In this document: piece after piece, positions 6,429 to 41,201 of the stretch | Position numbering within the stretch: position 1 is the first letter of the stretch | Layout of the letters: every line of letters starts with the position of its first letter | Source: a bacterium | GTDB lineage: Bacteria > Hinthialibacterota > Hinthialibacteria > Hinthialibacterales > Hinthialibacteraceae | DNA length: 64,000 nt | Direction of reading: 5' to 3' | NCBI GenBank assembly: GCA_041946805.1 | Contig: JBHGBC010000001.1 | Location: 96,001 to 160,000, forward strand | Notes under the pieces: generated by a model | Seen by the model: the letters and a program-made list of their open reading frames with translations, nothing else | What the model was told of the DNA's origin: nothing | Databases searched by the model: none | Translations under genes and position numbers: made by a program

Positions 6429-8987
<2,559 letters not shown>

Positions 8988-9296
8988 TCATCAGGTCTAT
9001 CGCAGTCCGGTACGCCTCGAACCCGGGCATGAAATGATTCTGGATCGAGAATAGGAATGTCTAAACTACATAAGTATAATGGAATGAGTTATAAACGTCA
9101 AGATTCGCAAACTGGCCCCCTCCCCGCGAAATGCATTCTCTCCAAGTTACGTCCCTTATGGCAGTTAGGTATAATTGAGTAGAATGCCCGCGGGTTCCCC
9201 ACGGCGTCCGGCGGGATGCCGCCCGGGGATTTTTCCGCTCCCGGGATTTCGCCCGATTTCCCCGGCGGGTTTGTAGAAAAGGAAATCTTCACCGCC

Positions 9297-31417: not shown

Positions 31418-32686
31418 TCAGGTCTTCTGGGGCTTTTTCTTGGCCGCCGGAAACAGCACGTTGTTCAGGATCAGGCGGTACCCCGGCGAGTTGGTATACT
31501 GGGACAGGTCCGTATCTCCCTCGCCGACCAGGTGTTGAGGATCTTCCGGATCGTGGCCGCCCAAGAACGTGAAGGTCCCCTTCTCCAGCACGCCGTGGAT
31601 GTACTTGGCGACGCCGAATCCCGGAAATTCGGCCAGCACAATCACGTTGGGCTTCAATCTGCTTTTCCGGAACGCGGTCGTCTGTCCCCAGAAATCCTTG
31701 ACTTTCCGGACATGATCCTGAGTGAGCATGGTGGGCACGGGATCGAACTTGGCGGAAAAATCGAAGAGATCGAAGGTGTCGCTCTGGTAGCGTTCTCCCG
31801 GCGTCAACGGGCTGGGATTGGTGTCGATATCGGAAAATTCATATATCAACGGATTGGGAATGATCGTGAAGTGAGCAAAGGCCAGGGTATTGGCGAAATC
31901 GAGTTTTTCCTGGTATCCGGGAGTCAGTCCGTCCCCGTCGATGGGAGCCTCGACGATATCGACGCCCAGGGCGGACAGGGCGATGTCCAGGGTGTCGGTG
32001 GCGGCGCACATGGCGAAGAGAAAGCCGCCGTTCTTGACGTAATTCCGGATTTCCGTGGCCACGGCCCCCTTGTGTTCCTGGACCTTGGAAAATCCGGCTT
32101 CGCGGGCGGCCGCCAAAAAGGTGCGCATCTGTTCCTGGTACCAGGCCGCGCTCCGGAAGCTGCCGTAGAACTTGCCGTACTGCCCGGTGAAGTCCTCGTG
32201 GTGCAGGTGCAGCCAGTCGTAGTCGTACAATTTGCCGCGCAGCACGTCCGGATCCCACAAGGGATCGAAAGGTATCTGGGCATAGGTGAGCGCCAGGGTG
32301 ACGGCGTCATCCCAGGGATTGCTGTTGGGGGGCGTGTAGACCGCCACCTTGGGGGCTTTCTCCAGGGGGATGACTTCCATGTTGTCCTGTTCGATCGCCT
32401 GATGGATGGACGCGATGTCGCCCTCCGTGACGGGCTGGACCGACACGCCCTGCAAGGCCGCGTAGTTCCGGGTGTTCTCGATCTCATGGATCAAAAACGA
32501 ACCGCCCCGGTAGTTGAGCAGCCATTCGGCCTTGTATTGCCGGGGCGCCTGCAAGGCCCAGTACGTGATCCCGTAGGCCCGCAGATGATCGGTCTGCGCG
32601 GCATCCATGGGGATGAGCAATCCATCGCACCAGGCCGGGATTCCCATGAGTAACCATAAAATAGAGACGGACAACCGCTTGCGCAT
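31418..32686 (-). CDS. Exported conserved protein with a class I glutamine-amidotransferase-like fold (family often mislabelled 'asparagine synthetase B')
   Basis: Signal peptide; motifs LIPMD..QTDHLRAYG, WLLNYRGGSF, YDWLHLHHEDFTGQYGKFY, GGFLFAMC and GGHDPED. Confidence 0.7.
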   Translation of the reverse strand: MRKRLSVSILWLLMGIPAWCDGLLIPMDAAQTDHLRAYGITYWALQAPRQYKAEWLLNYRGGSFLIHEIENTRNYAALQGVSVQPVTEGDIASIHQAIEQDNMEVIPLEKAPKVAVYTPPNSNPWDDAVTLALTYAQIPFDPLWDPDVLRGKLYDYDWLHLHHEDFTGQYGKFYGSFRSAAWYQEQMRTFLAAAREAGFSKVQEHKGAVATEIRNYVKNGGFLFAMCAATDTLDIALSALGVDIVEAPIDGDGLTPGYQEKLDFANTLAFAHFTIIPNPLIYEFSDIDTNPSPLTPGERYQSDTFDLFDFSAKFDPVPTMLTQDHVRKVKDFWGQTTAFRKSRLKPNVIVLAEFPGFGVAKYIHGVLEKGTFTFLGGHDPEDPQHLVGEGDTDLSQYTNSPGYRLILNNVLFPAAKKKPQKT

Positions 32687-33055
32687 GCTTAACCTGCCTG
32701 TTCTTATCCTTCGCTACGGACTGAGGGGGTATTGTACCACCTTTCCCATGGAACGAAAAACAGGGTGGATTCGTCACGCGCGGGAGGGTAATTCACCCGC
32801 AACCCGGGCCGCGTGGCCGCCCCTCATCGTGCCGGCGCACCGCCCGCTTCGCCCTTTTCGTCCTTTAGTTCCTTTGGGTCCTTTTGATACCTCCCCTCTT
32901 CCCGGGGCAGGAGGCAGCCCACCCGGCCGATCAAAAAATAACGGAATCTCCCGATAATCCTGAAGAAAGAATTGATGAAAAGAGGATCCCGCGGGTACAA
33001 TAAATCATTGGGATGATGATTTTGAGCGTGCGAGAATGGGATTATCCAATTCAGA

Positions 33056-34081
33056 ATGACCGCTACCCGCAAGCAAGTCGACAACACTCCCCGGCAATGG
33101 GCGATCCTCTCCCAGGATGAATCCTCGGTCATTTCCTCCGTGCTGCAAAAGATCACGGAATCGGACGCCCAGTTCACCGTGTACGGCGAACTCCAACTGT
33201 TCGAGCACGTGACCGCCTGCCCGGTTCCCCTCTCGGCGCTGGGGAGACTGCCCACGCTCGCCGAGGTCAAGAACAACCCGGAGCGGATCGAAGGCGTGGT
33301 CATCCGGCTGGATGAAAAAAAACGGATGATCATCCGGCTCGATTCCCACCCCATCCAACTCAAGGGGCCGGTGAAAAAGGTCCCGTTTCGTTTCGAGATG
33401 AAATCCTCCCCGGTTTTCTTGACCTTCGCGGCCTACGGCGAACCCCAAATCGGCGACTTCGTGAAATTCCATGACCTGATCAAGGAAAAGGCCCAGTCCA
33501 ACCTGCTGATTCTAGTGGATTTGGCCCAGGTTACCCGGCTTCCCTCCCTCACCGGCCCCATTCTAGGCGATCTGATCGAATACTTGACCCAGCGGAAACG
33601 GAAGGTGGCTATTCTCAACTCGCTGGCGCTGGGTCCGCACTTTCTGGGTACGTATTCCAACACCCGGTTTCTGCGGCATGTGAATCAAGAGCAGGAAGCC
33701 GTGGATTTTTTCCAGGACGAACCGCTTTCCATCCTGGTGGTGGAAGACGAGGAAACCACCCAGCTGCTGATCGCCACGTTCCTGACCCAACGGCATTTTC
33801 AACCCATCGTGGCCTCCACCGCCGAGGAAGGGATCGCCCTGGCCCGCGAAAAACGGCCGGACCTGGTCTTGATGGATCATTACCTGCCGGGCATGAGCGG
33901 CATCGAGGCGGTCCGGATCTTGCGGGACGATCCCCAAACCGGCTCAATCCCCATCCTCATGTTCACCGCGGATTCGGAGCAGGAAACCGTAATGGAAGCG
34001 ATGCAACTGCGGGTGGACGGCTACCTGCTGAAGCCCCTCAATCCCGACGTGTTCATCGAACGGATCGCCAAAACGTTGTGA
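33056..34081 (+). CDS. Response regulator: unknown N-domain, STAS-like domain, C-terminal receiver
   Basis: REC motifs ILVVEDE, PDLVLMDHYLPGMSG, PILMFTA and YLLKP; central LILVDLAQVTRLPS resembles STAS VxDLSxVxxxDS. Confidence 0.75.
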   Translation: MTATRKQVDNTPRQWAILSQDESSVISSVLQKITESDAQFTVYGELQLFEHVTACPVPLSALGRLPTLAEVKNNPERIEGVVIRLDEKKRMIIRLDSHPIQLKGPVKKVPFRFEMKSSPVFLTFAAYGEPQIGDFVKFHDLIKEKAQSNLLILVDLAQVTRLPSLTGPILGDLIEYLTQRKRKVAILNSLALGPHFLGTYSNTRFLRHVNQEQEAVDFFQDEPLSILVVEDEETTQLLIATFLTQRHFQPIVASTAEEGIALAREKRPDLVLMDHYLPGMSGIEAVRILRDDPQTGSIPILMFTADSEQETVMEAMQLRVDGYLLKPLNPDVFIERIAKTL

Positions 34082-34300
34082 TACGGCAGGGGACTTTGTA
34101 TATTGGAAACGCGCGTGCTCCAGGGACTATTCCATCCGGCCAGGCCCGGGATTGTAATCACGGGCTACAGGCAGGTGGTCTCCCGCAGGGGACTCGTAGG
34201 AAGGCACAATCATAGCAGGGACCCGTGGGCGCGCCGCAACGGGCTCCTTCTTCTCATTTCCTGTGCTTACCATTTCTCTCCAGGGTGGTTTTCCTCCACT

Positions 34301-35746
34301 TCACCCCCTGGGCACCCGGTCCGCGATGATCTCCCGCACCCGCTTGGGATCGGCTTTCCCCTGCGATGCGCGCATGGCTTGGCCGACCAGAAAGCCGATG
34401 GCCTGGGCCTTGCCCTTGCGGATGTTTTCAACCGCGTCCGGATGGGCCTCCAGCAGCCGGGCGACCAGCGATTCCAGTTCCGACGTATCGGTCATCTGGC
34501 GCAGCCCCCGCTGTTCCACGATCGCGGCGGGGCTTTCTTGCGATGCGAACATGAGATCGAAGACTTCCTTGGCGGCCGTGGCGTTGATTTCACCCTGCTC
34601 CACCAGCGCGAGCAGGGCGGCGAGGCGCAAGGGATCCACCGGATTGTCCGCGAGCGCCACCCGCCGTTCCTTCAAGGCGGGCAGGAGTTGTTCGGCGATC
34701 CAATGGGCGGCGGCGCGGGGATTGGGGCATGATTCGGCCACCGCTTCGAAATATTCGGCCACATCCCGCTCGGCGGTCATCCACTGCGCTTCTTCATCCG
34801 GCAGGCCGAAAGTCTCCCTGAACCGCCGGCGCTTTTCCGCGGGCAACTCCGGCAGCCGCGCGCGAAACGCGGCCAGTTGCTCATCATCGATCACGATGGG
34901 CGGCACGGTGGGATCGGGCACACAGGGGCCGGAAAACTTCGCCCGCATGGGGGTGGTGATCCCTTGCTCGGGATTCCACAACCGGGTGTGCAGCCGCACC
35001 GCTTCACCGGCCTGGACCTGCCCGATCTGCCGTTGAATTTCATAGGCAATCGCGTCGCCGACGTGGCGGATGGAGTTCATGTTCTTGACTTCCACCTTGG
35101 TGTTCAGTTCCTCGGAACCGGCGGGGCGGATGGAAATGTTCGCGTCGGCCCGCATGGTCCCGCGTTCCAGGCTGCACTCGGCCGCGTCCACGTAGCGGAT
35201 CTGCGTCCGCAGGGCGCGCAGGAATTCCATGGCATCGTGCGGGCCGCGCATGTCCGGTTCCGTGACGATCTCGATCAGCGGCGCGCCGGCCCGGTTGAAG
35301 TCCACCAGGCTGATAGGCTTCGAGCCTTCGGTGTCGTGCACCAGTTTCGCGACATCTTCCTCCATATGGATTTCGTGGATGCGCAACCGTTTCGGGCGGC
35401 CGTCCTCGCCTATGATTTCCAGCCAACCGTTACGCGCCAGGGGCTTGTGGAATTGCGACAGCTGATAACCCTTGGGCAGGTCCGGGTAGTAATATACCTT
35501 CTGGTCGAAGACGCTGCGCGGTTGAATCTCGCAATGGAGGGCCAGGCACGCCATCACGGCTTTTTCGACCGCCGCCCAACTCAGATGAGGAAACGCGCCC
35601 GGCAGCCACAGGCAGGTGGGGCACACGTATTGGTTGGGTTGTTCTCCCGGCTGGTTTGGGCAGTCGCAGAACAACTTGGTGGCGCAGTTCAGATGGATGT
35701 GGATTTCCAATCCGATCACCGCTTCGTATTGGTGGTTATTCGGCAT
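34301..35746 (-). CDS. gatB: Asp/Glu-tRNA amidotransferase subunit B (divergent)
   Basis: Motifs YEAVIGLEIH, TKLFC, YPDLPKGYQ, IHMEED, VDFNRAGAPLIEIVTEPD and EVKNMNS, plus Yqey tail GFLVGQAMR..GKADP. Lacks EEAxDYRYF. Confidence 0.92.
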   Translation of the reverse strand: MPNNHQYEAVIGLEIHIHLNCATKLFCDCPNQPGEQPNQYVCPTCLWLPGAFPHLSWAAVEKAVMACLALHCEIQPRSVFDQKVYYYPDLPKGYQLSQFHKPLARNGWLEIIGEDGRPKRLRIHEIHMEEDVAKLVHDTEGSKPISLVDFNRAGAPLIEIVTEPDMRGPHDAMEFLRALRTQIRYVDAAECSLERGTMRADANISIRPAGSEELNTKVEVKNMNSIRHVGDAIAYEIQRQIGQVQAGEAVRLHTRLWNPEQGITTPMRAKFSGPCVPDPTVPPIVIDDEQLAAFRARLPELPAEKRRRFRETFGLPDEEAQWMTAERDVAEYFEAVAESCPNPRAAAHWIAEQLLPALKERRVALADNPVDPLRLAALLALVEQGEINATAAKEVFDLMFASQESPAAIVEQRGLRQMTDTSELESLVARLLEAHPDAVENIRKGKAQAIGFLVGQAMRASQGKADPKRVREIIADRVPRG

Positions 35747-36962
35747 CGTTGGTTCCCTTCCCGGAGGCGGCGTTCACGAGATGACGGGCGGCCGCGAGCA
35801 GGCGGACATCGGCCAGCGGCGGCCCCATCCACTGCAATCCCAAACTCATATCCGGATCAAAAAGAGATCCCGGCACCGCCAGCGCGGGAAATCCCAACAG
35901 GTTGGCGGGCAACGCCGGTTCAAAACGGTCATACAATTTGTCCAGAGATGAATCCCCCGAGGCATCCGAAGCAGGGGAGCGTAATGGGGAGATCAGCACG
36001 TCCACGTTTTCGAAGAGAGCCTGGGCTTGTTGCAGCAAGCGGCCGCGGATCCGGCAGGCGTTATCGAACGCGGGATAATTCTGGAACTGGAAATACGCAC
36101 CCTGGAACAAGTAACTCTTGATCAGCAGGCCGAACGATTCCGCGCGCGACCGCAGATACATCTCATTCCAGTTCTCGGCGTTCGCGGTCCGGTGGCCATA
36201 ACGCACTCCGTCGTATTTCCCCGCGTGGGAGGATGCCTCCACGGATCCCACCGCCTGGTGCGCCACGCGGAAGAGTTCGTACTCCGGAAGGCCGATCGAT
36301 GTGACGTGAATATTCATCTTACCCAGCCATGTCAACGCCTGCTCAAAGCATTTGGCTTCATCCGGAGACAGACCACGCAAACTCTCCCGGATTACGCCTG
36401 CCTTGATCGGCTTATCGGGCTTTTTCTTGGCTTGGGTGAAATCGAGGGCGGCGTCACGGCGCATGGAGGGGTCTCGTTCATCGGGTCCCGCCAGGACGGC
36501 CAATATTGTGGTGATGGTATCGAGGGACCGGGCGGCCACGCCCAGGCATTCCATCGAGGGGATCAGGCCATTGAATCCGAACCGCGAAATCAGGCCATAG
36601 CTGGGCTTGAATCCATAACATTGGCTGGCCACGGCCGCGCACCGGGCTTCTCCCATCAAGTCGGTCATCACCGCCGCGTGGCCCAGACTTTGCGATAAGG
36701 CATCGGCCATCCGGTCTCCGTCCAGGCCGAGCCCCAGTTCCGCCATGCGGATGCTGCCCGCCAGTTTTGCGCCCGCGGCTTTCAGCTTTTCCACGGCGGC
36801 GGCGTCTTGCAGGGGAACGAACTTTTCGAGCGCCACGCTTCCCGCGCCGCATTCCCACCCCCGCGCCGCCAGGTTGGGTTGAATCAATATTTCCAACTCC
36901 GACAAGGGACCCCGCCCCGCCGCTTGGGAGGCATCGCGATAAGCAAAGATAAGATCTGGCAT
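35736..36962 (-). CDS. gatA: GatA-like amidase-signature protein lacking the catalytic triad
   Basis: Start behind a GAGGTG RBS. Retains GFKPSYGLISRFG, YDGVRYGHR, R.ESFG and ANLLG.PA..VP, but KDN reads QPN, GGSSGGS is absent and DTGGSIR reads DLMGEAR. Confidence 0.85.
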   Translation of the reverse strand: MPDLIFAYRDASQAAGRGPLSELEILIQPNLAARGWECGAGSVALEKFVPLQDAAAVEKLKAAGAKLAGSIRMAELGLGLDGDRMADALSQSLGHAAVMTDLMGEARCAAVASQCYGFKPSYGLISRFGFNGLIPSMECLGVAARSLDTITTILAVLAGPDERDPSMRRDAALDFTQAKKKPDKPIKAGVIRESLRGLSPDEAKCFEQALTWLGKMNIHVTSIGLPEYELFRVAHQAVGSVEASSHAGKYDGVRYGHRTANAENWNEMYLRSRAESFGLLIKSYLFQGAYFQFQNYPAFDNACRIRGRLLQQAQALFENVDVLISPLRSPASDASGDSSLDKLYDRFEPALPANLLGFPALAVPGSLFDPDMSLGLQWMGPPLADVRLLAAARHLVNAASGKGTNDAE

Positions 36963-36996
36963 TCCACACCTCGCTGAAGATTCGCTGGTGAAAAGG

Positions 36997-37082
36997 CTTC
37001 CCTCACACCCGGCCCTCTCCCGGAGGGAGAGGGAATTCATTGTTTGGGTCCCCATCGTCTCAGGGCTGAAGCCCTGGGCTAG
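36997..37082. repeat. Composite REP element (family B plus family C) between aspS-gatC and gatA
   Basis: CCCTCACACCCGGCCCTCTCCCGGAGGGAGAGGG...CAGGGCTGAAGCCCTGGGCTAG; matches 21305-21378. Confidence 0.8.
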
Positions 37083-37168
37083 GCTCATGCCGCGCCGTGG
37101 GCGCTGAAAAGACAAGCACGCATTCCAGTAAATCATTCAATACGAAAACTCAACAGAACCGATACGAT

Positions 37169-39283
37169 TTATTCCAAAATATTCGCGACCTTGAAATAAT
37201 CCCCCTTCAGGGCGGGAGCGTTTTTGAGCAATTCGCCGGATGGCACAAACGGGCTGATCCGGGCTTCGGTTCCCGGACGGGATTTTTGCGCGATCTCGAT
37301 GACCGAATACAACGGCTCGCCGTCGCCGGGGATAGATTGTATCTTTTCCGCCAAACGCTCCGCCTGCCGCACCGCTGCATGCACGGCGTTTCGCTCGTTA
37401 TCACTCACTCCGATGCGGGAAACCCAGGACAAGGTCTCCACGATATCCCCCTCGTGGTCCATCCCCGGCAACACCGCTTCTCCCCCCAGGTTCAACAGCC
37501 CCAGTTCCGCCAATTGCTGCCGGGCGACGGGCGAGGGCGCTTGCGTCAACGGGCAATACGCGCTCCGGTTTTTGGGGAACGCAATAACATCACGGATGGA
37601 GGCCGTCCCCAGGATCATGGCGGTCACGCGGTCCAGCCCCAGGGCGATGCCGCCGTGCGGCGGCGCGCCGTATTCCAACGCCTGCACGAAGAAGCCGAAC
37701 TTGTCGGCGATGTCTTCGGGAGTCAATCCCAGGGCTTCGAACACTTTTTGCTGGACTTTGGTGTCGTGGATGCGGATGCTGCCCCCGCCCAATTCCTCGC
37801 CGTTCATCACCAGGTCGTAAGCCCGGGAGCGCAACGACAGCAGTTCATCGCGGTCGCGGGGATCGAAATCCACCCGGTCCGGCGCGGTGAAGGGATGGTG
37901 GCAGGACGTGACCCAATCCTCCGTGGGTTCGAAAAGAGGGAACTCGGTCACCCATAGCGGGCAGTATGTGCCGGCGGGGATCAACCCCAGCCGGTCCGCC
38001 ACATGCAGCCGCAGTTTACCCAGCACCGCGGTCACCACCGCATAGGAGGCATCGGCGATCAGCATGAGCACGTCGCCCTCTTCCGCCTCAAAACGCCGGA
38101 GGATTTCCTGCCGCTCGCCCTCGCTGAAAAACTGCACGATGTTGGATTCCAGATTCCCGCCGGCCACCCGCATCCAGGTCATGCCCTTGCCGCCCAGCGA
38201 AGGGACGATTTGCTTGGCGTATTCGTTCTGCAACACGTTTTTGCTCAGGGCGTCCGATTGGCCCTTGACGTTGATGCCCTTGATGCGCCCGCCGGCCTGG
38301 ATGATCTTCTGGAAGATGGCGTAATTCGTGTTCCGGAAAATATCGGTGGCCTCGATGAACCGCAATCCGAAGCGCAGATCGGGGCGGTCGGAGCCGGTGG
38401 TGTCCATGGCTTCTTGGTAAGTCATGCGGGGAAAGGGGCGGGGCAGGTCGATGCCGCCCACGGCGAACATCCGGACGGTGAGTTCCTCCATCAATTCATA
38501 AATGAATTCCTCGTCGATGAAGGAGGCTTCCAGATCGATCTGGGTGAATTCGGGCTGGCGGTTGGGACGCAGATCTTCGTCGCGGAAACACCGGACGATT
38601 TGGAAGTAGCGTTCGAAGCCGCTGATCATCAGCAGCTGCTTGAACAGCTGGGGCGATTGCGGCAGCGCGTAAAAATGGCCTGGATGCACGCGGCTGGGGA
38701 CGAGGTAGTCGCGCGCCCCTTCGGGCGTGCTTTTGGTCAGTACCGGGGTTTCGATTTCCAGAAATCCGCGCTCGTCGAGAAAATCCCGCACGCGCTTGAC
38801 GATACGGTGGCGTTTGATGAAATGGTCCTGCATCGAGGGGCGCCGCAGATCCAGAAAGCGGTATTGCAGCCGCAGGTCTTCCGCCACCGCGCCCGGACCG
38901 GCCAGTTCCACCCCGGCGGTCATACCCTTCTCCGAGATCAGGAACGGCAAGGGCTTGGAGGGATTCAAGACCATCAGCTCCGTGGCGATGATCTCCACGT
39001 CTCCGGTTTCCAGCGACGGATTTTCCGTGCCCGGCATCCGCTCCGCCACGGTTCCCGTCACCGTCATGCAAAATTCTTCCTTGAGACCCCGTGTCAGTTC
39101 CCGCAAATGGGGCGCGCGGTTCCAATCGAAGACGACTTGCACAATGCCGCTGCGGTCCCGCAGATGCGCGAAGAGCACCTCGCCATGGTCCCGCAGGGCG
39201 TCCATCCATCCCGCGACTTGCACTTGGCGGCCGGCGTCCTTCGGACGCAACGAGCCACAGGGAATCCGGTCATGAAAATTCAT
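37169..39283 (-). CDS. aspS: Aspartyl-tRNA synthetase (non-discriminating type) with a C-terminal GatC fusion
   Basis: GAGGTG RBS. Motifs RDHG, LRDRSG, TPEGARDYLVP, LPQSPQLFKQ, CFRDEDLR.NRQPEFTQ and PPHGGIALGLDR. Extra ~95-aa tail ending LLKNAPALKGDYFKVANILE is GatC-like. Confidence 0.93.
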   Translation of the reverse strand: MNFHDRIPCGSLRPKDAGRQVQVAGWMDALRDHGEVLFAHLRDRSGIVQVVFDWNRAPHLRELTRGLKEEFCMTVTGTVAERMPGTENPSLETGDVEIIATELMVLNPSKPLPFLISEKGMTAGVELAGPGAVAEDLRLQYRFLDLRRPSMQDHFIKRHRIVKRVRDFLDERGFLEIETPVLTKSTPEGARDYLVPSRVHPGHFYALPQSPQLFKQLLMISGFERYFQIVRCFRDEDLRPNRQPEFTQIDLEASFIDEEFIYELMEELTVRMFAVGGIDLPRPFPRMTYQEAMDTTGSDRPDLRFGLRFIEATDIFRNTNYAIFQKIIQAGGRIKGINVKGQSDALSKNVLQNEYAKQIVPSLGGKGMTWMRVAGGNLESNIVQFFSEGERQEILRRFEAEEGDVLMLIADASYAVVTAVLGKLRLHVADRLGLIPAGTYCPLWVTEFPLFEPTEDWVTSCHHPFTAPDRVDFDPRDRDELLSLRSRAYDLVMNGEELGGGSIRIHDTKVQQKVFEALGLTPEDIADKFGFFVQALEYGAPPHGGIALGLDRVTAMILGTASIRDVIAFPKNRSAYCPLTQAPSPVARQQLAELGLLNLGGEAVLPGMDHEGDIVETLSWVSRIGVSDNERNAVHAAVRQAERLAEKIQSIPGDGEPLYSVIEIAQKSRPGTEARISPFVPSGELLKNAPALKGDYFKVANILE

Positions 39284-39555
39284 CGATGTGTCACCTCGGT
39301 TGTTTCCCTTGCGCGGCGGGAACCGGCGCCCGCATGCCTGGCTTTCGTCCCCCCCGGCGTGTTGCTGGTTTTTCACGTATCATGGGCCGTCCCCCTTTGT
39401 CAAGGCGGAGGCCCGGGCCGGGCCGGCAAGGAACATGCCGCAAAAAACAATCCGCTGCCCCTCTCAGTCGCCGGCCCAGTAAGAGTACAATAGACTTTTC
39501 CTGGTTTCCCGCGGGAGCGGGAGAGATCAATGAACCGATTCAGGAAAGGGAGACA

Positions 39556-40029
39556 ATGCGCGCGCTGCGGATCTTGATTCTATTGGCGATTATCGTGTTG
39601 GTGGGATTGGCCTTCTATGCCAAGGGGCCGGATGGTTTTTTCTCGAAAACCGGGACGGATTCCACGCCGGCCGAACCGGCCAACGCCCTCGACAAGATGC
39701 AGAAGATGGTGGAAGAGCGCCTGCCCCAGTTGCGTGGCAACGGCGAACGCCTGCTGGGCGACATTTCGAATTTTTTCAAGGACTTGAATACCCAAGCCAA
39801 GGATGTCATTCTTTCGGCGTCTCCTGCACTTTCGCAAGCGATTTCCGAACGCGTCTTTTCGGCGACCACGCCCCTGACCGAATCCGAAAAGGATGAGATC
39901 GGAAAAGAACTGAAAGCCCTGGGAGAAGAATTACGCCAAAAGGGGCAGGAGGAGCTCGCCCGCCGCGCGGACGAGATTTATCAACAGTTCAAGAAGAAAC
40001 TGGAAGAGGCCGGCAAGGTCCAGCCGTAG
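39556..40029 (+). CDS. Hypothetical protein with N-terminal membrane anchor/signal, helical
   Basis: AGGGAG RBS before MRALRILILLAIIVLVGLAF; Lys/Glu-rich helices. Confidence 0.7.
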   Translation: MRALRILILLAIIVLVGLAFYAKGPDGFFSKTGTDSTPAEPANALDKMQKMVEERLPQLRGNGERLLGDISNFFKDLNTQAKDVILSASPALSQAISERVFSATTPLTESEKDEIGKELKALGEELRQKGQEELARRADEIYQQFKKKLEEAGKVQP

Positions 40030-40064
40030 AAGCGGCGGGAGGATTTCCAACCGATCCATCTACC

Positions 40065-41201
40065 CTACTTTTTCAGAAAATATTCAAAAAAACGGTATAG
40101 AATCTCGTTGGATTCGGGTGTGGGGTCGTGGCCCGCGCGGTTCGTCATGGCCACCCGGTTCTCGAATCCCAGCAGCCGGTTGACGGCGACGGTGTGATTC
40201 AACGCCTTCCAGCGTTCTGGCTGGTCCTCGGAGCCGCCGGATACCAGAAACGGGCGGGGGGCCATGAGCGCGTGCAGTTCGTGCAAATCGAAGCCGCCCG
40301 CGATCATTTTCTTGTACGCCCCCGTGCGGGGATTGTCGTCCGTGGGAACGCCGGGCTTCCGCTCCACGCCCCGCTCGTAACCCAGGTACCAAGGCTCCCA
40401 GTAATTCACATTCGGGCGCGTCTCGTCGAACACGATACCCGGGTCGGAGACGGCGGCGCAGGCGAATTGGCCGTACAAGCAGGCCGCGAACATCGCCCAT
40501 TTCCCGCCGTACGAATGCCCGGTGATCCCCACGCGGGCCGGATCGACGCCGGGCACGGTCACCAGGGCGTTGTAACAATTGGCGGCCGCGTAGGCCAGGG
40601 CGGACAGCGGCTGCAGGTCGGCGTTGGCTTTGCCGGGATAGTACAACGAGGCGGGCATCCCCACCGACAGCGCGGCAAATCCGCGCCTGGCCAATTGATA
40701 CCCGAAATCCCGCCGCTCCTTCCCCATTCCCGCCCCGGTCTCGGGATCGTAATACACCACGATGACCGCGGGCCACGGCGGCTGGGCGTCGGGGATCATG
40801 AGATAGCCCGGAATCGTACCGCCGTGGGGTGTGATCTCCACGGTCACTTTTTTGCGCGTGAATCCCTCGATCTTCTCCTCGCCGTGGATGGTGATGGCCG
40901 GCTTCTCGATCAGGGGCGGCCATTTTCCCATCAGGCCGTGCCAGGCATCCAGGATTTCCTGGCGGCGTTTTTGCCATTCCGCCGCGGTTTTGACCGGACG
41001 GCCGTCATAAAACCGCAGGGGAGAGCGGTAGTTCCCCAGATCGTTCGCGAATTCGGGAGGCGGGCTGAAATACGCGGCCAGCCGCTCCCACCCGGCCGCG
41101 CTTTCCTCTCCCCCAACCGCCGGAAGGCCGGAGATCGCCATAATCCCCAGCAGCGTGATTGGATAAACGGCTCGATTTAGGACGAATGCTTTCATCTCCA
41201 T
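40065..41201 (-). CDS. Exported alpha/beta-hydrolase (esterase/dienelactone-hydrolase-like)
   Basis: Signal peptide, nucleophile elbow VGITGHSYGG, LMAPRPFL and C-terminal His (AGHD). Confidence 0.8.
   Translation of the reverse strand: MEMKAFVLNRAVYPITLLGIMAISGLPAVGGEESAAGWERLAAYFSPPPEFANDLGNYRSPLRFYDGRPVKTAAEWQKRRQEILDAWHGLMGKWPPLIEKPAITIHGEEKIEGFTRKKVTVEITPHGGTIPGYLMIPDAQPPWPAVIVVYYDPETGAGMGKERRDFGYQLARRGFAALSVGMPASLYYPGKANADLQPLSALAYAAANCYNALVTVPGVDPARVGITGHSYGGKWAMFAACLYGQFACAAVSDPGIVFDETRPNVNYWEPWYLGYERGVERKPGVPTDDNPRTGAYKKMIAGGFDLHELHALMAPRPFLVSGGSEDQPERWKALNHTVAVNRLLGFENRVAMTNRAGHDPTPESNEILYRFFEYFLKK

Follow-up and report, generated by a model that had tools for sequence, protein, structure and literature searches.

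An operon of fused AspRS-GatC, triad-less GatA, and remodelled GatB: a candidate hard-wired second Asn-tRNA(Asn) transamidosome

Indirect synthesis of Asn-tRNA(Asn) is textbook glutamine-dependent chemistry. In carbamoyl-phosphate synthetase I and NH3-dependent NAD synthetase, the synthetase or kinase domain runs on free ammonia although the glutaminase part is inactive or missing; the same logic may hold for the three-gene operon described here (aspS2-gatC, gatA', and gatB2), although those enzymes have unrelated folds and are not tRNA-dependent. The operon lies in a 64-kb stretch of DNA from a bacterium of the Hinthialibacterota (assembly GCA_041946805.1, contig JBHGBC010000001.1), which we call the window. 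Its closest described counterpart is the bacterial Asn-transamidosome, composed of a non-discriminating AspRS (ND-AspRS) together with GatCAB as well as tRNA(Asn) and solved from T. thermophilus (3KFU) and P. aeruginosa (4WJ3). The two share the same four protein parts, including an AspRS of the GAD type, and the same presumed sequence of aspartylation, phosphorylation, and amidation, and GatA' and GatB2 find their best sequence and fold matches among chains of these entries. In contrast to that complex, the module has GatC covalently fused to the synthetase, a GatA that lacks both the catalytic triad and the Gln-binding Asp, and a GatB without DYRYFPEPD and EEDAGK—and it is an extra copy, carried beside a canonical set.

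Two further systems offer partial likenesses. Yeast mitochondrial GatFAB (4N0H/4N0I; PMC4027206) is, like the module, a variant amidotransferase with an elaborated GatC-like subunit, and it is capable of NH4Cl-dependent transamidation that bypasses GatA; unlike the module, it keeps an active glutaminase triad, has no fusion to an aminoacyl-tRNA synthetase, and has Glu-tRNA(Gln) as its substrate. AtzE-AtzG (6C62/6C6G), a "vestigial" GatA/GatC-like complex of s-triazine catabolism, combines a GatA fold with a GatC-like peptide and has likewise left canonical transamidation; in the fold search with GatA', its entries came 20th and 22nd. AtzE differs from GatA' in being a hydrolase by its NCBIfam name (AtzE family amidohydrolase), which implies an active site, and in not being known to have a GatB or synthetase partner.

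The fusion itself is already known as a database name. NCBIfam NF009460 (PRK12820, bifunctional AspRS/GatC) has the same architecture, and the window protein (residues 1–704) aligns to model positions 18–723 with 1195 bits, under the curated cut-off of 1379 despite the identical architecture; the annotation is silent on the dead GatA and the altered GatB. A literature search for papers on a naturally fused AspRS-GatC, or on a GatA without the triad, found none, most subscription journals being outside its coverage, and the phrase "bifunctional aspartyl-tRNA synthetase" occurred in no paper of the literature searched. A 2014 survey calls a second AspRS rare in bacteria and lists an archaeal-type one only (PMC4206432); the "aspS-gatC" of the same paper was considered as a natural precedent and rejected, being an artificial operon. 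No published study, then, appears to describe the module. New here are the family-wide signatures of GatB2 and AspRS2, the finding that all 16 carrier genomes also hold canonical genes, the counts of AsnRS, the survey of tRNAs, the ratios of non-synonymous to synonymous substitution rates (dN/dS), the evidence for transfer, and the apparent recurrence of triad loss in GatA-like proteins outside the clade.

The glutaminase site of GatA' has been dismantled. The protein matches the Pfam Amidase family, its best sequence matches in the PDB are GatA chains of solved transamidosomes, and its AlphaFold2 model (predicted local distance difference test score 80) has the GatA chain 3kfu_E as top fold match (template modelling score 0.85); against TIGR00132 (GatA), however, it attains 207 bits and does not reach the cut-off of 481, whereas the canonical GatA of the same genome scores 591. 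Its N-terminus is about 60 amino acids (aa) shorter than that of canonical GatA. In the window protein, the catalytic Lys has become Q28, the cis-Ser loop is lost with a deletion of 22 aa, and the nucleophile Ser has become E105. These replacements are family-wide: among 120 homologues aligned to the genome's canonical GatA (VAVKDN, GGSSGGS, and DTGGSIR, the motifs by which residue positions were mapped), the catalytic Lys is Gln in 113 (motif IQPN), the cis-Ser loop (GGSSGGS) is deleted as a 22-residue block in all 120, the nucleophile is Glu in 119 (motif TDTMGEAR), and the Gln-binding Asp is Phe in 111. Neither GGSSGG nor KDN occurred in any of 79 full-length GatA' open reading frames (ORFs) from metagenome loci, which had been picked by two other GatA' motifs. 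The triad-less GatA of the original prediction, made from the letters of the window, is thus a property of the whole family, and its claim that Gln and Asn cannot serve as donors is upheld at the level of sequence, in that loss of the triad would exclude their hydrolysis by the usual Ser-cisSer-Lys mechanism.

The remainder of the old pocket tells a different story from simple loss. In S. aureus GatA numbering, we found the equivalents of D174, G177, and R180 and of the Gln-binding Arg (R358) kept in 120/120 GatA' homologues, and the SSLDQ Asp (D211 equivalent) replaced by Glu in 117/120. Because these four residues are kept and the D211 equivalent is so uniformly Glu, we regard the site as rebuilt, not eroded. 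The Gln-binding Asp is D425 in the same numbering. In the yeast enzyme, the Gln-binding Arg and Asp are R334 and D418 (PMC4027206). When 1.84 billion representatives were searched with a GatA' profile, about 24 (including fragments) scored between 277 and 534 bits, followed by a sharp gap and then by scores of at most 255 bits, where lengths turn canonical; the full-length GatA' sequences from this search, 13 in number, group as one clade (support 100).

Degenerate triads were also seen in other GatA-like proteins. Among the best 150 representatives against the GatA' profile, a quick alignment showed K/S/S kept in 94, and about 25 outside the Q-x-E clade had degenerate triads, some of them with the same loop deletion: P0264 (K-x-S), P0281 (K/loop deleted/E), and P0304 (E-x-E) are examples, and P0265, P0271, P0276, P0283, P0289, P0307, P0312, P0325, P0332, P0354, P0361, and P0372 are further such proteins. 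In a FastTree phylogeny they are scattered among normal GatA, the starred branches forcing at least nine changes, so that loss of the GatA glutaminase seems to recur outside the GatA' clade; some of these sequences may be errors or pseudogenes.

GatB2 keeps its kinase residues within otherwise remodelled motifs. It passes the GatB models (TIGR00133, 513 bits against a cut-off of 315; NF004012, 583 against 338), contains the GatB_N cradle (PF02934) and the YqeY tail (PF02637) together with a helical domain and a four-Cys motif, and has Aquifex and Thermotoga GatB as its closest solved structures; the Cys-x-Cys...Cys-x-x-Cys cluster also occurs in many canonical GatB and is no novelty. The Mg/ATP ligands described for GatB are E10, H12, E124, E150, T153, N194, and S196 in S. 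aureus numbering (PMC4027206). GatB2 retains all seven in PDB alignments, E10 and H12 as E14 and H16, and they are invariant in 16 module sequences.

Seven motif changes distinguish 18 module GatB sequences from the 16 canonical ones encoded in the same genomes. Among them, canonical CLGxPG reads CLWxPG (W47), F(D/A)RKNY reads FDQKVY (Q82, V84), EEDAGK reads EEDVAK (V132, A133), YQISQ reads YQLSQ, QETRLW reads LHTRLW (H253), and KE.A.DYRYFP(E/D)PD reads KF.G--PC(V/I)PDP (C275), with a deletion of two to three residues; the seven residues given in brackets are new and invariant in GatB2. The canonical forms EEDAGK, F(D/A)RKNY, and DYRYFP(E/D)PD are present in all 16 canonical sequences aligned. 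In 60 further full-length GatB2 ORFs from metagenomes, the new motifs were found in 57–60 and DYRYFP and EEDAGK in none—the remodelled GatB that had been noticed in the window alone is therefore shared by the family. The 3_10 turn K183-E186 of GatB, which reads the U1-A72 pair (PMC2811023), is of canonical length in GatB2, with KMEE changed to S(L/M)E(R/Q). Several of the changes adjoin E124/E125 or sit in the FDRKNY strand and exchange polar for hydrophobic residues; we suspect, as a conjecture, that these line the ammonia path.

The synthetase, too, is complete and recognisably its own family. AspRS2 matches PF01336 (OB), PF00152 (class II core), and PF02938 (GAD) and passes the bacterial AspRS models (TIGR00459, 689 bits against a cut-off of 374; NF001750, 746 against 443). 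Alignment with 14 canonical AspRS of the 16 carrier genomes gave 190 shared conserved columns and 57 family-specific ones. It keeps QSPQ, motif 2 (FRDED...QPEFTQ), and motif 3 (GGGSIR...GLDR), and is distinguished by an 11-aa hinge insertion (SEKxM...), a motif-2 loop that reads RPNRQPEF for RADRQPEF, and EASF for EMSF; RPNRQPEF recurred in 50 of 53 metagenome AspRS2 ORFs and SEK.M in 51 of 53.

About 107 residues past the normal AspRS end form a C-terminal tail. Its matches to GatC models are weak and lie below the cut-offs: Pfam GatC (PF02686) aligns to residues 627–699 with an E-value of 0.0045 and 17.6 bits against 23, and TIGR00135 aligns over positions 6–93 of 93 with 19.4 bits against 47.1; Pfam GatC is matched at E<=0.01 by 17 of 34 family members. 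An hhalign comparison of a nine-tail profile with the genome's own GatC gave a probability of 91% and an E-value of 9.7e-7 over 87 columns (again positions 6–93 of 93), the alignment taking in the terminal KNAP...YFKV...E motif. By its sequence, the tail is a full-length GatC homologue, and one is fused to AspRS in every full-length relative examined. An AspRS-GatC fusion is what the original prediction had read in the window, and its picture of a hard-wired AspRS-amidotransferase module agrees, as far as sequence goes, with the fusion seen in these relatives.

The three genes travel together. Eight of eight genome loci show the order aspS2-gatC, gatA', gatB2, two of them being cut by contig ends. 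Of 80 metagenome loci, all 69 with 400 nt or more of space upstream have the GatC tail there, all 62 with 1000 nt or more have the AspRS core there as well, and 71 of the 72 with 500 nt or more downstream have GatB2 on that side; GatA' is thus encoded between gatC and gatB, the place required of a GatA. Beyond the three genes, the next family is common to just 7 of the 80 metagenome loci, and the flanking genes compared among nine genome loci have none in common. The module is autonomous: three genes without a conserved partner. Measured against a same-genus relative, dN/dS is 0.10 for AspRS2-GatC, 0.24 for GatA', and 0.12 for GatB2, compared with 0.10 for canonical GatB and 0.07 for canonical AspRS of the same pair. 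The module is under purifying selection and not decaying, which answers the relaxed selection or decay that the original prediction had named as evidence that would tell against it. In one Desulfobacteraceae metagenome-assembled genome (L023:2561-4214), gatB2 is spread over two overlapping frames, either an assembly error or a decaying copy.

When 792 candidates were searched with the tail, 285 proved to be fused proteins at E<=1e-5, nearly all of them 704–706 aa long, from sources that include Kiritimatiellia, Dehalococcoidia, Thermoleophilia/Gaiellales, Desulfuromonadaceae, Auribacterota, and Deltaproteobacteria metagenome-assembled genomes. Source names of GatA' homologues comprise Desulfobacterales, Syntrophales, Syntrophorhabdaceae, Omnitrophota, and Auribacterota; Deltaproteobacteria-type syntrophic lineages are thus among the carriers, in line with the long second AspRS paralogues that the original prediction had placed in some syntrophic deltaproteobacteria. 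Distribution is patchy, with the module in 6 of 35 genomes (5 of 27 genera) of the window's GTDB phylum and in 9 of the 401 genomes sampled from the phylum to which a Smithellaceae carrier belongs. Across phyla, AspRS2 sequences are 65–70% identical as against 47–55% for canonical AspRS, and GatB2 sequences 58–65% as against 48–52% for canonical GatB. In a GatB tree, 17 module sequences fall on one side of a branch with a Shimodaira-Hasegawa-like approximate likelihood ratio (SH-aLRT) support of 100. The module GatB of G039, a genome of the window's phylum, is sister to that of a Smithellaceae genome with support 100, whereas its canonical GatB groups with its own phylum. The greater likeness of the module across phyla, together with this discordance in the GatB tree, points to horizontal transfer.

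In each carrier the module is a second copy. The window genome (G000; 6.7 Mb in 315 contigs, 96.8% complete) has canonical gatA (C48, 591 bits), gatB (C112), aspS (C266), and gatC (C250) on other contigs, and it has GlnRS; AsnRS was searched for in this genome and not found. In each of sixteen carrier genomes, chosen for carrying GatA', gatB and aspS were both matched twice and no more, once at a canonical gene and once within the module, and canonical gatA was over the cut-off in 5/5 carriers tested. The expectation that a canonical set would exist beside the operon is thus confirmed, and of the genes to look for—aspS, gatCAB, and asnS—the window genome lacks a detectable copy of the last only. 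The same genome contains four AsnB-type genes over the TIGR01536 cut-off (contigs C259, C157, C24, and C299), which rules out the module as its only route to Asn; some of the four probably serve other amidations. AsnRS exceeded the cut-off in 2 of the 16 carriers; one further carrier had a partial match at the end of a contig, and in the other 13 none was found. We therefore reject, as a rule, the idea that the module replaces a missing AsnRS: on these counts it is neither an AsnRS replacement nor excluded by AsnRS.

The tRNA complement of the one complete carrier genome is unremarkable. No tRNA gene occurs in the 64-kb window. In this genome, G303 (4.46 Mb, one contig), the 52 tRNAs are of ordinary kinds, with no suppressor, odd, or extra tRNA found among them; there is a single tRNA-Asp and a single tRNA-Asn(GUU), with U1-A72 and G73, which lies just downstream of canonical aspS (C1:1137609-1137681). 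The 80 metagenome loci hold 3 tRNA genes in all, and in one locus a tRNA-Asn(GUU) is found directly upstream of aspS2 (L185:4199-4274). The module presumably uses the cell's normal tRNA(Asn), and this in turn argues for a product tolerable to translation, namely Asn.

For a module that has lost the triad, kept the GatB kinase residues, and been conserved and spread horizontally as an autonomous unit, we propose with moderate confidence, from its sequences, that the operon may encode a hard-wired, self-contained second Asn-tRNA(Asn) transamidosome that is glutamine-independent and takes free ammonia as donor. We infer that the parts assemble as a complex, that tRNA(Asn) is the substrate and ammonia the donor, and that Asn-tRNA(Asn) is the product. 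AspRS2, presumably a dimer like other AspRS, would load aspartate onto tRNA(Asn) and probably onto tRNA(Asp) too, while the fused GatC tail would serve as a permanent tether for the GatA'-GatB2 pair; GatB2 would then phosphorylate the beta-carboxyl of Asp-tRNA(Asn) and amidate it to Asn-tRNA(Asn). Since GatA' has no Ser-cisSer-Lys triad, the nitrogen would most likely come from free NH3/NH4+ and not from hydrolysis of Gln or Asn. GatA' would be kept as a folding and assembly partner of GatB2 and may double as an entry site for ammonium, a role that the invariant Glu at the nucleophile site, the retained Asp/Arg/Glu network, and the deleted lid-like loop suggest.

Published biochemistry lends this model chemical plausibility. 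tRNA-dependent amidotransferases amidate with 20 mM NH4Cl once the glutaminase is bypassed, and a truncation of yeast GatFAB that destabilises the GatA active site lowers Gln-dependent activity and raises NH4Cl-dependent activity (both from PMC4027206). GatA, GatC, and GatB are mutually needed for folding and assembly (PMC2330236; PMC4027206), and this interdependence would account for the retention of GatA'.

Several observations nevertheless weigh against a glutamine-independent Asn-transamidosome. The module is redundant beside canonical aspS and gatB in 16/16 carriers, two of which also have AsnRS, and its selective benefit is unexplained. A simple switch of donor leaves unexplained the loss of DYRYFPEPD and EEDAGK and the gain of Trp47, His253, and Cys275 in GatB2. 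At the equivalent of T175, which we assume to be a tunnel residue of GatA, the window GatA' has Leu, a residue found there in 6/120 homologues. ARAGORN, moreover, finds no tRNA-Asn in the window's draft assembly. From that draft, tRNA-Ile(GAT) and tRNA-Ala(TGC) are likewise missing and tRNA-Sec is present; the joint absence of three tRNAs probably reflects a gap in unassembled rRNA/tRNA regions and not true absence.

The GatB2 motifs are the starting point for the best-surviving alternative, a new chemistry in which GatB2 would phosphorylate Asp-tRNA and hand the acyl phosphate on to some nucleophile that is not ammonia—a thiol or sulfide, a different amine, or a Cys of the enzyme that would form a thioester—with Cys275, His253, Trp47, and the loss of DYRYFPEPD as the residues concerned and a non-standard aminoacyl-tRNA or a tRNA-dependent metabolite as product. 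Judged by sequence, the pocket motifs are altered beyond the needs of a donor switch: the changes are family-wide, in motifs invariant in the 16 canonical GatB, and the metagenome ORFs repeat them; a Cys, a His, and a Trp are fresh and invariant; the motif-2 loop and hinge of AspRS2 are altered as well; and the module always comes in addition to a working canonical system. Against this, no conserved gene for a transferase, reductase, sulfur carrier, or transporter accompanies the module in the 80 metagenome and nine genome loci, the 3_10 turn and YqeY tail of GatB2 look canonical, and the complete carrier genome holds no dedicated tRNA, so that any unusual product carried by tRNA(Asn) or tRNA(Asp) would find its way into translation. 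The different amine or non-standard tRNA product entertained in the original prediction thus gained no positive support, conserved accessory genes being absent from the 80 loci and odd tRNAs from the one complete genome, and we consider this chemistry unlikely. Its strongest form is similarly doubtful, namely that GatB2 is no longer ammonia-dependent and captures beta-phosphoryl-Asp-tRNA for a different nucleophile, in a reaction that would add a fourth kind to the tRNA-dependent amino-acid conversions. That conversion would stand beside amidation, Sep->Cys, and Sep/Ser->Sec and be carried by a mobile three-gene module in many anaerobic phyla, an equally tentative picture.

A second alternative retains amidation and moves the source of nitrogen: GatA' would be a mere scaffold, and ammonia would be supplied in trans by a docking glutaminase or amidase or by canonical GatA exchanging into the complex. 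Canonical GatA is available in the 5/5 carriers tested, and in two related carriers a full-length, triad-type amidase is encoded directly downstream of gatB2. The strongly conserved residues of the old pocket in GatA' would, however, be needless in a mere spacer, the neighbouring amidase is confined to these 2 closely related loci of 18 module loci classified, and no such amidase family is common among the 80 metagenome loci; we rate supply in trans as quite improbable. The neighbouring protein belongs to the amidase-signature family (482 aa; L044:7785-9230, and L045 at about 7776-9230, in genomes G355/G272), matches Pfam Amidase with 337 bits, and shares about 29% identity with canonical GatA; it might supply ammonia in trans, or its position might be coincidental.

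It is also conceivable that no amidation takes place and that GatA'-GatB2 acts as a tRNA-binding cofactor or chaperone of AspRS2, raising charging, protecting Asp-tRNA, or sequestering tRNA(Asn) under stress, with GatB2 catalysis unused. The dead glutaminase would fit such a role, and fusions of aminoacyl-tRNA synthetases with tRNA-binding parts derived from amidotransferases exist, as in D. radiodurans, whose GlnRS carries a YqeY domain (PMC1865053). Yet the Mg/ATP ligands and kinase motifs of GatB2 are invariant, as they are in 57–60 of 60 metagenome ORFs, and its dN/dS of 0.12 is on par with that of canonical GatB; a pure binding role would not hold such residues, and we find this account very unlikely. 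That the operon is a decaying, functionless duplicate of aspS-gatCAB, as the lost glutaminase residues and the split gatB2 of L023 might hint, is barely credible in view of dN/dS values of 0.10–0.24, the same replacement residues in 113–120 of 120 homologues, intact frames and fixed gene order across phyla, and a GatA' family that forms a single clade with support 100.

According to a 2008 review, glutamine-independent formation of Asn-tRNA was then known only via AsnA plus AsnRS (PMC2330236). If the proposed free-ammonia transamidosome is right, the module would be a second glutamine-independent route to Asn-tRNA, since synthetase and amidotransferase are joined in it and the glutaminase is dispensed with. 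The module would further provide a naturally occurring, permanently tethered transamidosome in which a pseudoenzyme is kept as an assembly or ammonia-entry subunit, and a test case for re-engineering of the GatCAB ammonia tunnel and the GatB pocket; if the chemistry of GatB2 differs, it would represent a new tRNA-dependent conversion. For annotation, GatA', now named "amidase family protein" or "GatA", is not to be counted as a glutaminase, and a "second aspS/gatB" in anaerobes is not to be taken for simple redundancy.

The coordinates of the operon and its neighbours are given in Table 1. The three genes run head to tail, without frameshifts or internal stops, and the co-oriented intact genes, the extents, and the ribosome-binding sites before aspS and gatA that had been read from the letters all proved exact. 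GAGGTG lies 8 nt before the aspS2 ATG, whose open frame extends back to 39376; the protein that begins at this ATG has the length of nearly all AspRS2-GatC relatives. For gatA', the open frame is 466 aa long, and a GAGGTG precedes the ATG of the MPDLIF start, where all relatives likewise begin; the resulting 408-aa protein is identical to database protein P0001. The gatB2 ATG and the gatA' stop overlap by 11 nt, which suggests translational coupling.

Table 1. Features of the operon and its flanks (positions in the window)
Feature	Position	Strand	Remarks
aspS2-gatC	37169-39283	-	704 aa; ATG at 39283
aspS2 core, residues 1-596	37496-39283	-	OB anticodon-binding domain, class II catalytic core, and GAD insertion
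linker (residues 597-614), GatC homologue (615-704), and stop	37169-37495	-	in-frame fusion to AspRS
spacer aspS2-gatC/gatA'	36963-37168	-	206 nt; hairpins and gatA' ribosome-binding site GAGGTG
gatA'	35736-36962	-	408 aa
gatB2	34301-35746	-	481 aa
422-aa protein	31418-32686	-	flanking gene; no Pfam family
response-regulator receiver domain (C-terminal) protein	33056-34081	+	flanking gene
164-aa protein	39535-40029	+	flanking gene; no Pfam family
esterase/dienelactone-hydrolase-like protein	40065-41201	-	flanking gene

None of the four flanking genes is related to the module or conserved in relatives. The spacer between aspS2-gatC and gatA' contains two strong hairpins, one of them at 37013-37033; its conservation in the same-genus relative is limited to the part near the ribosome-binding site, and other loci have spacers with a median of 26 nt. 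An Rfam scan of 33000-41000 found no riboswitch, T-box, or leader; its sole match, sub-threshold, was to Acido-Lenti-1 RNA within the spacer on the strand opposite to the operon (37059-37105, +; 32.2 bits against a gathering score of 37, E 2.3e-4). On the operon strand, a scan for promoters and terminators showed nothing above shuffled expectation, and a candidate TTGACA was spotted by eye upstream of aspS2 at 39398-39403.

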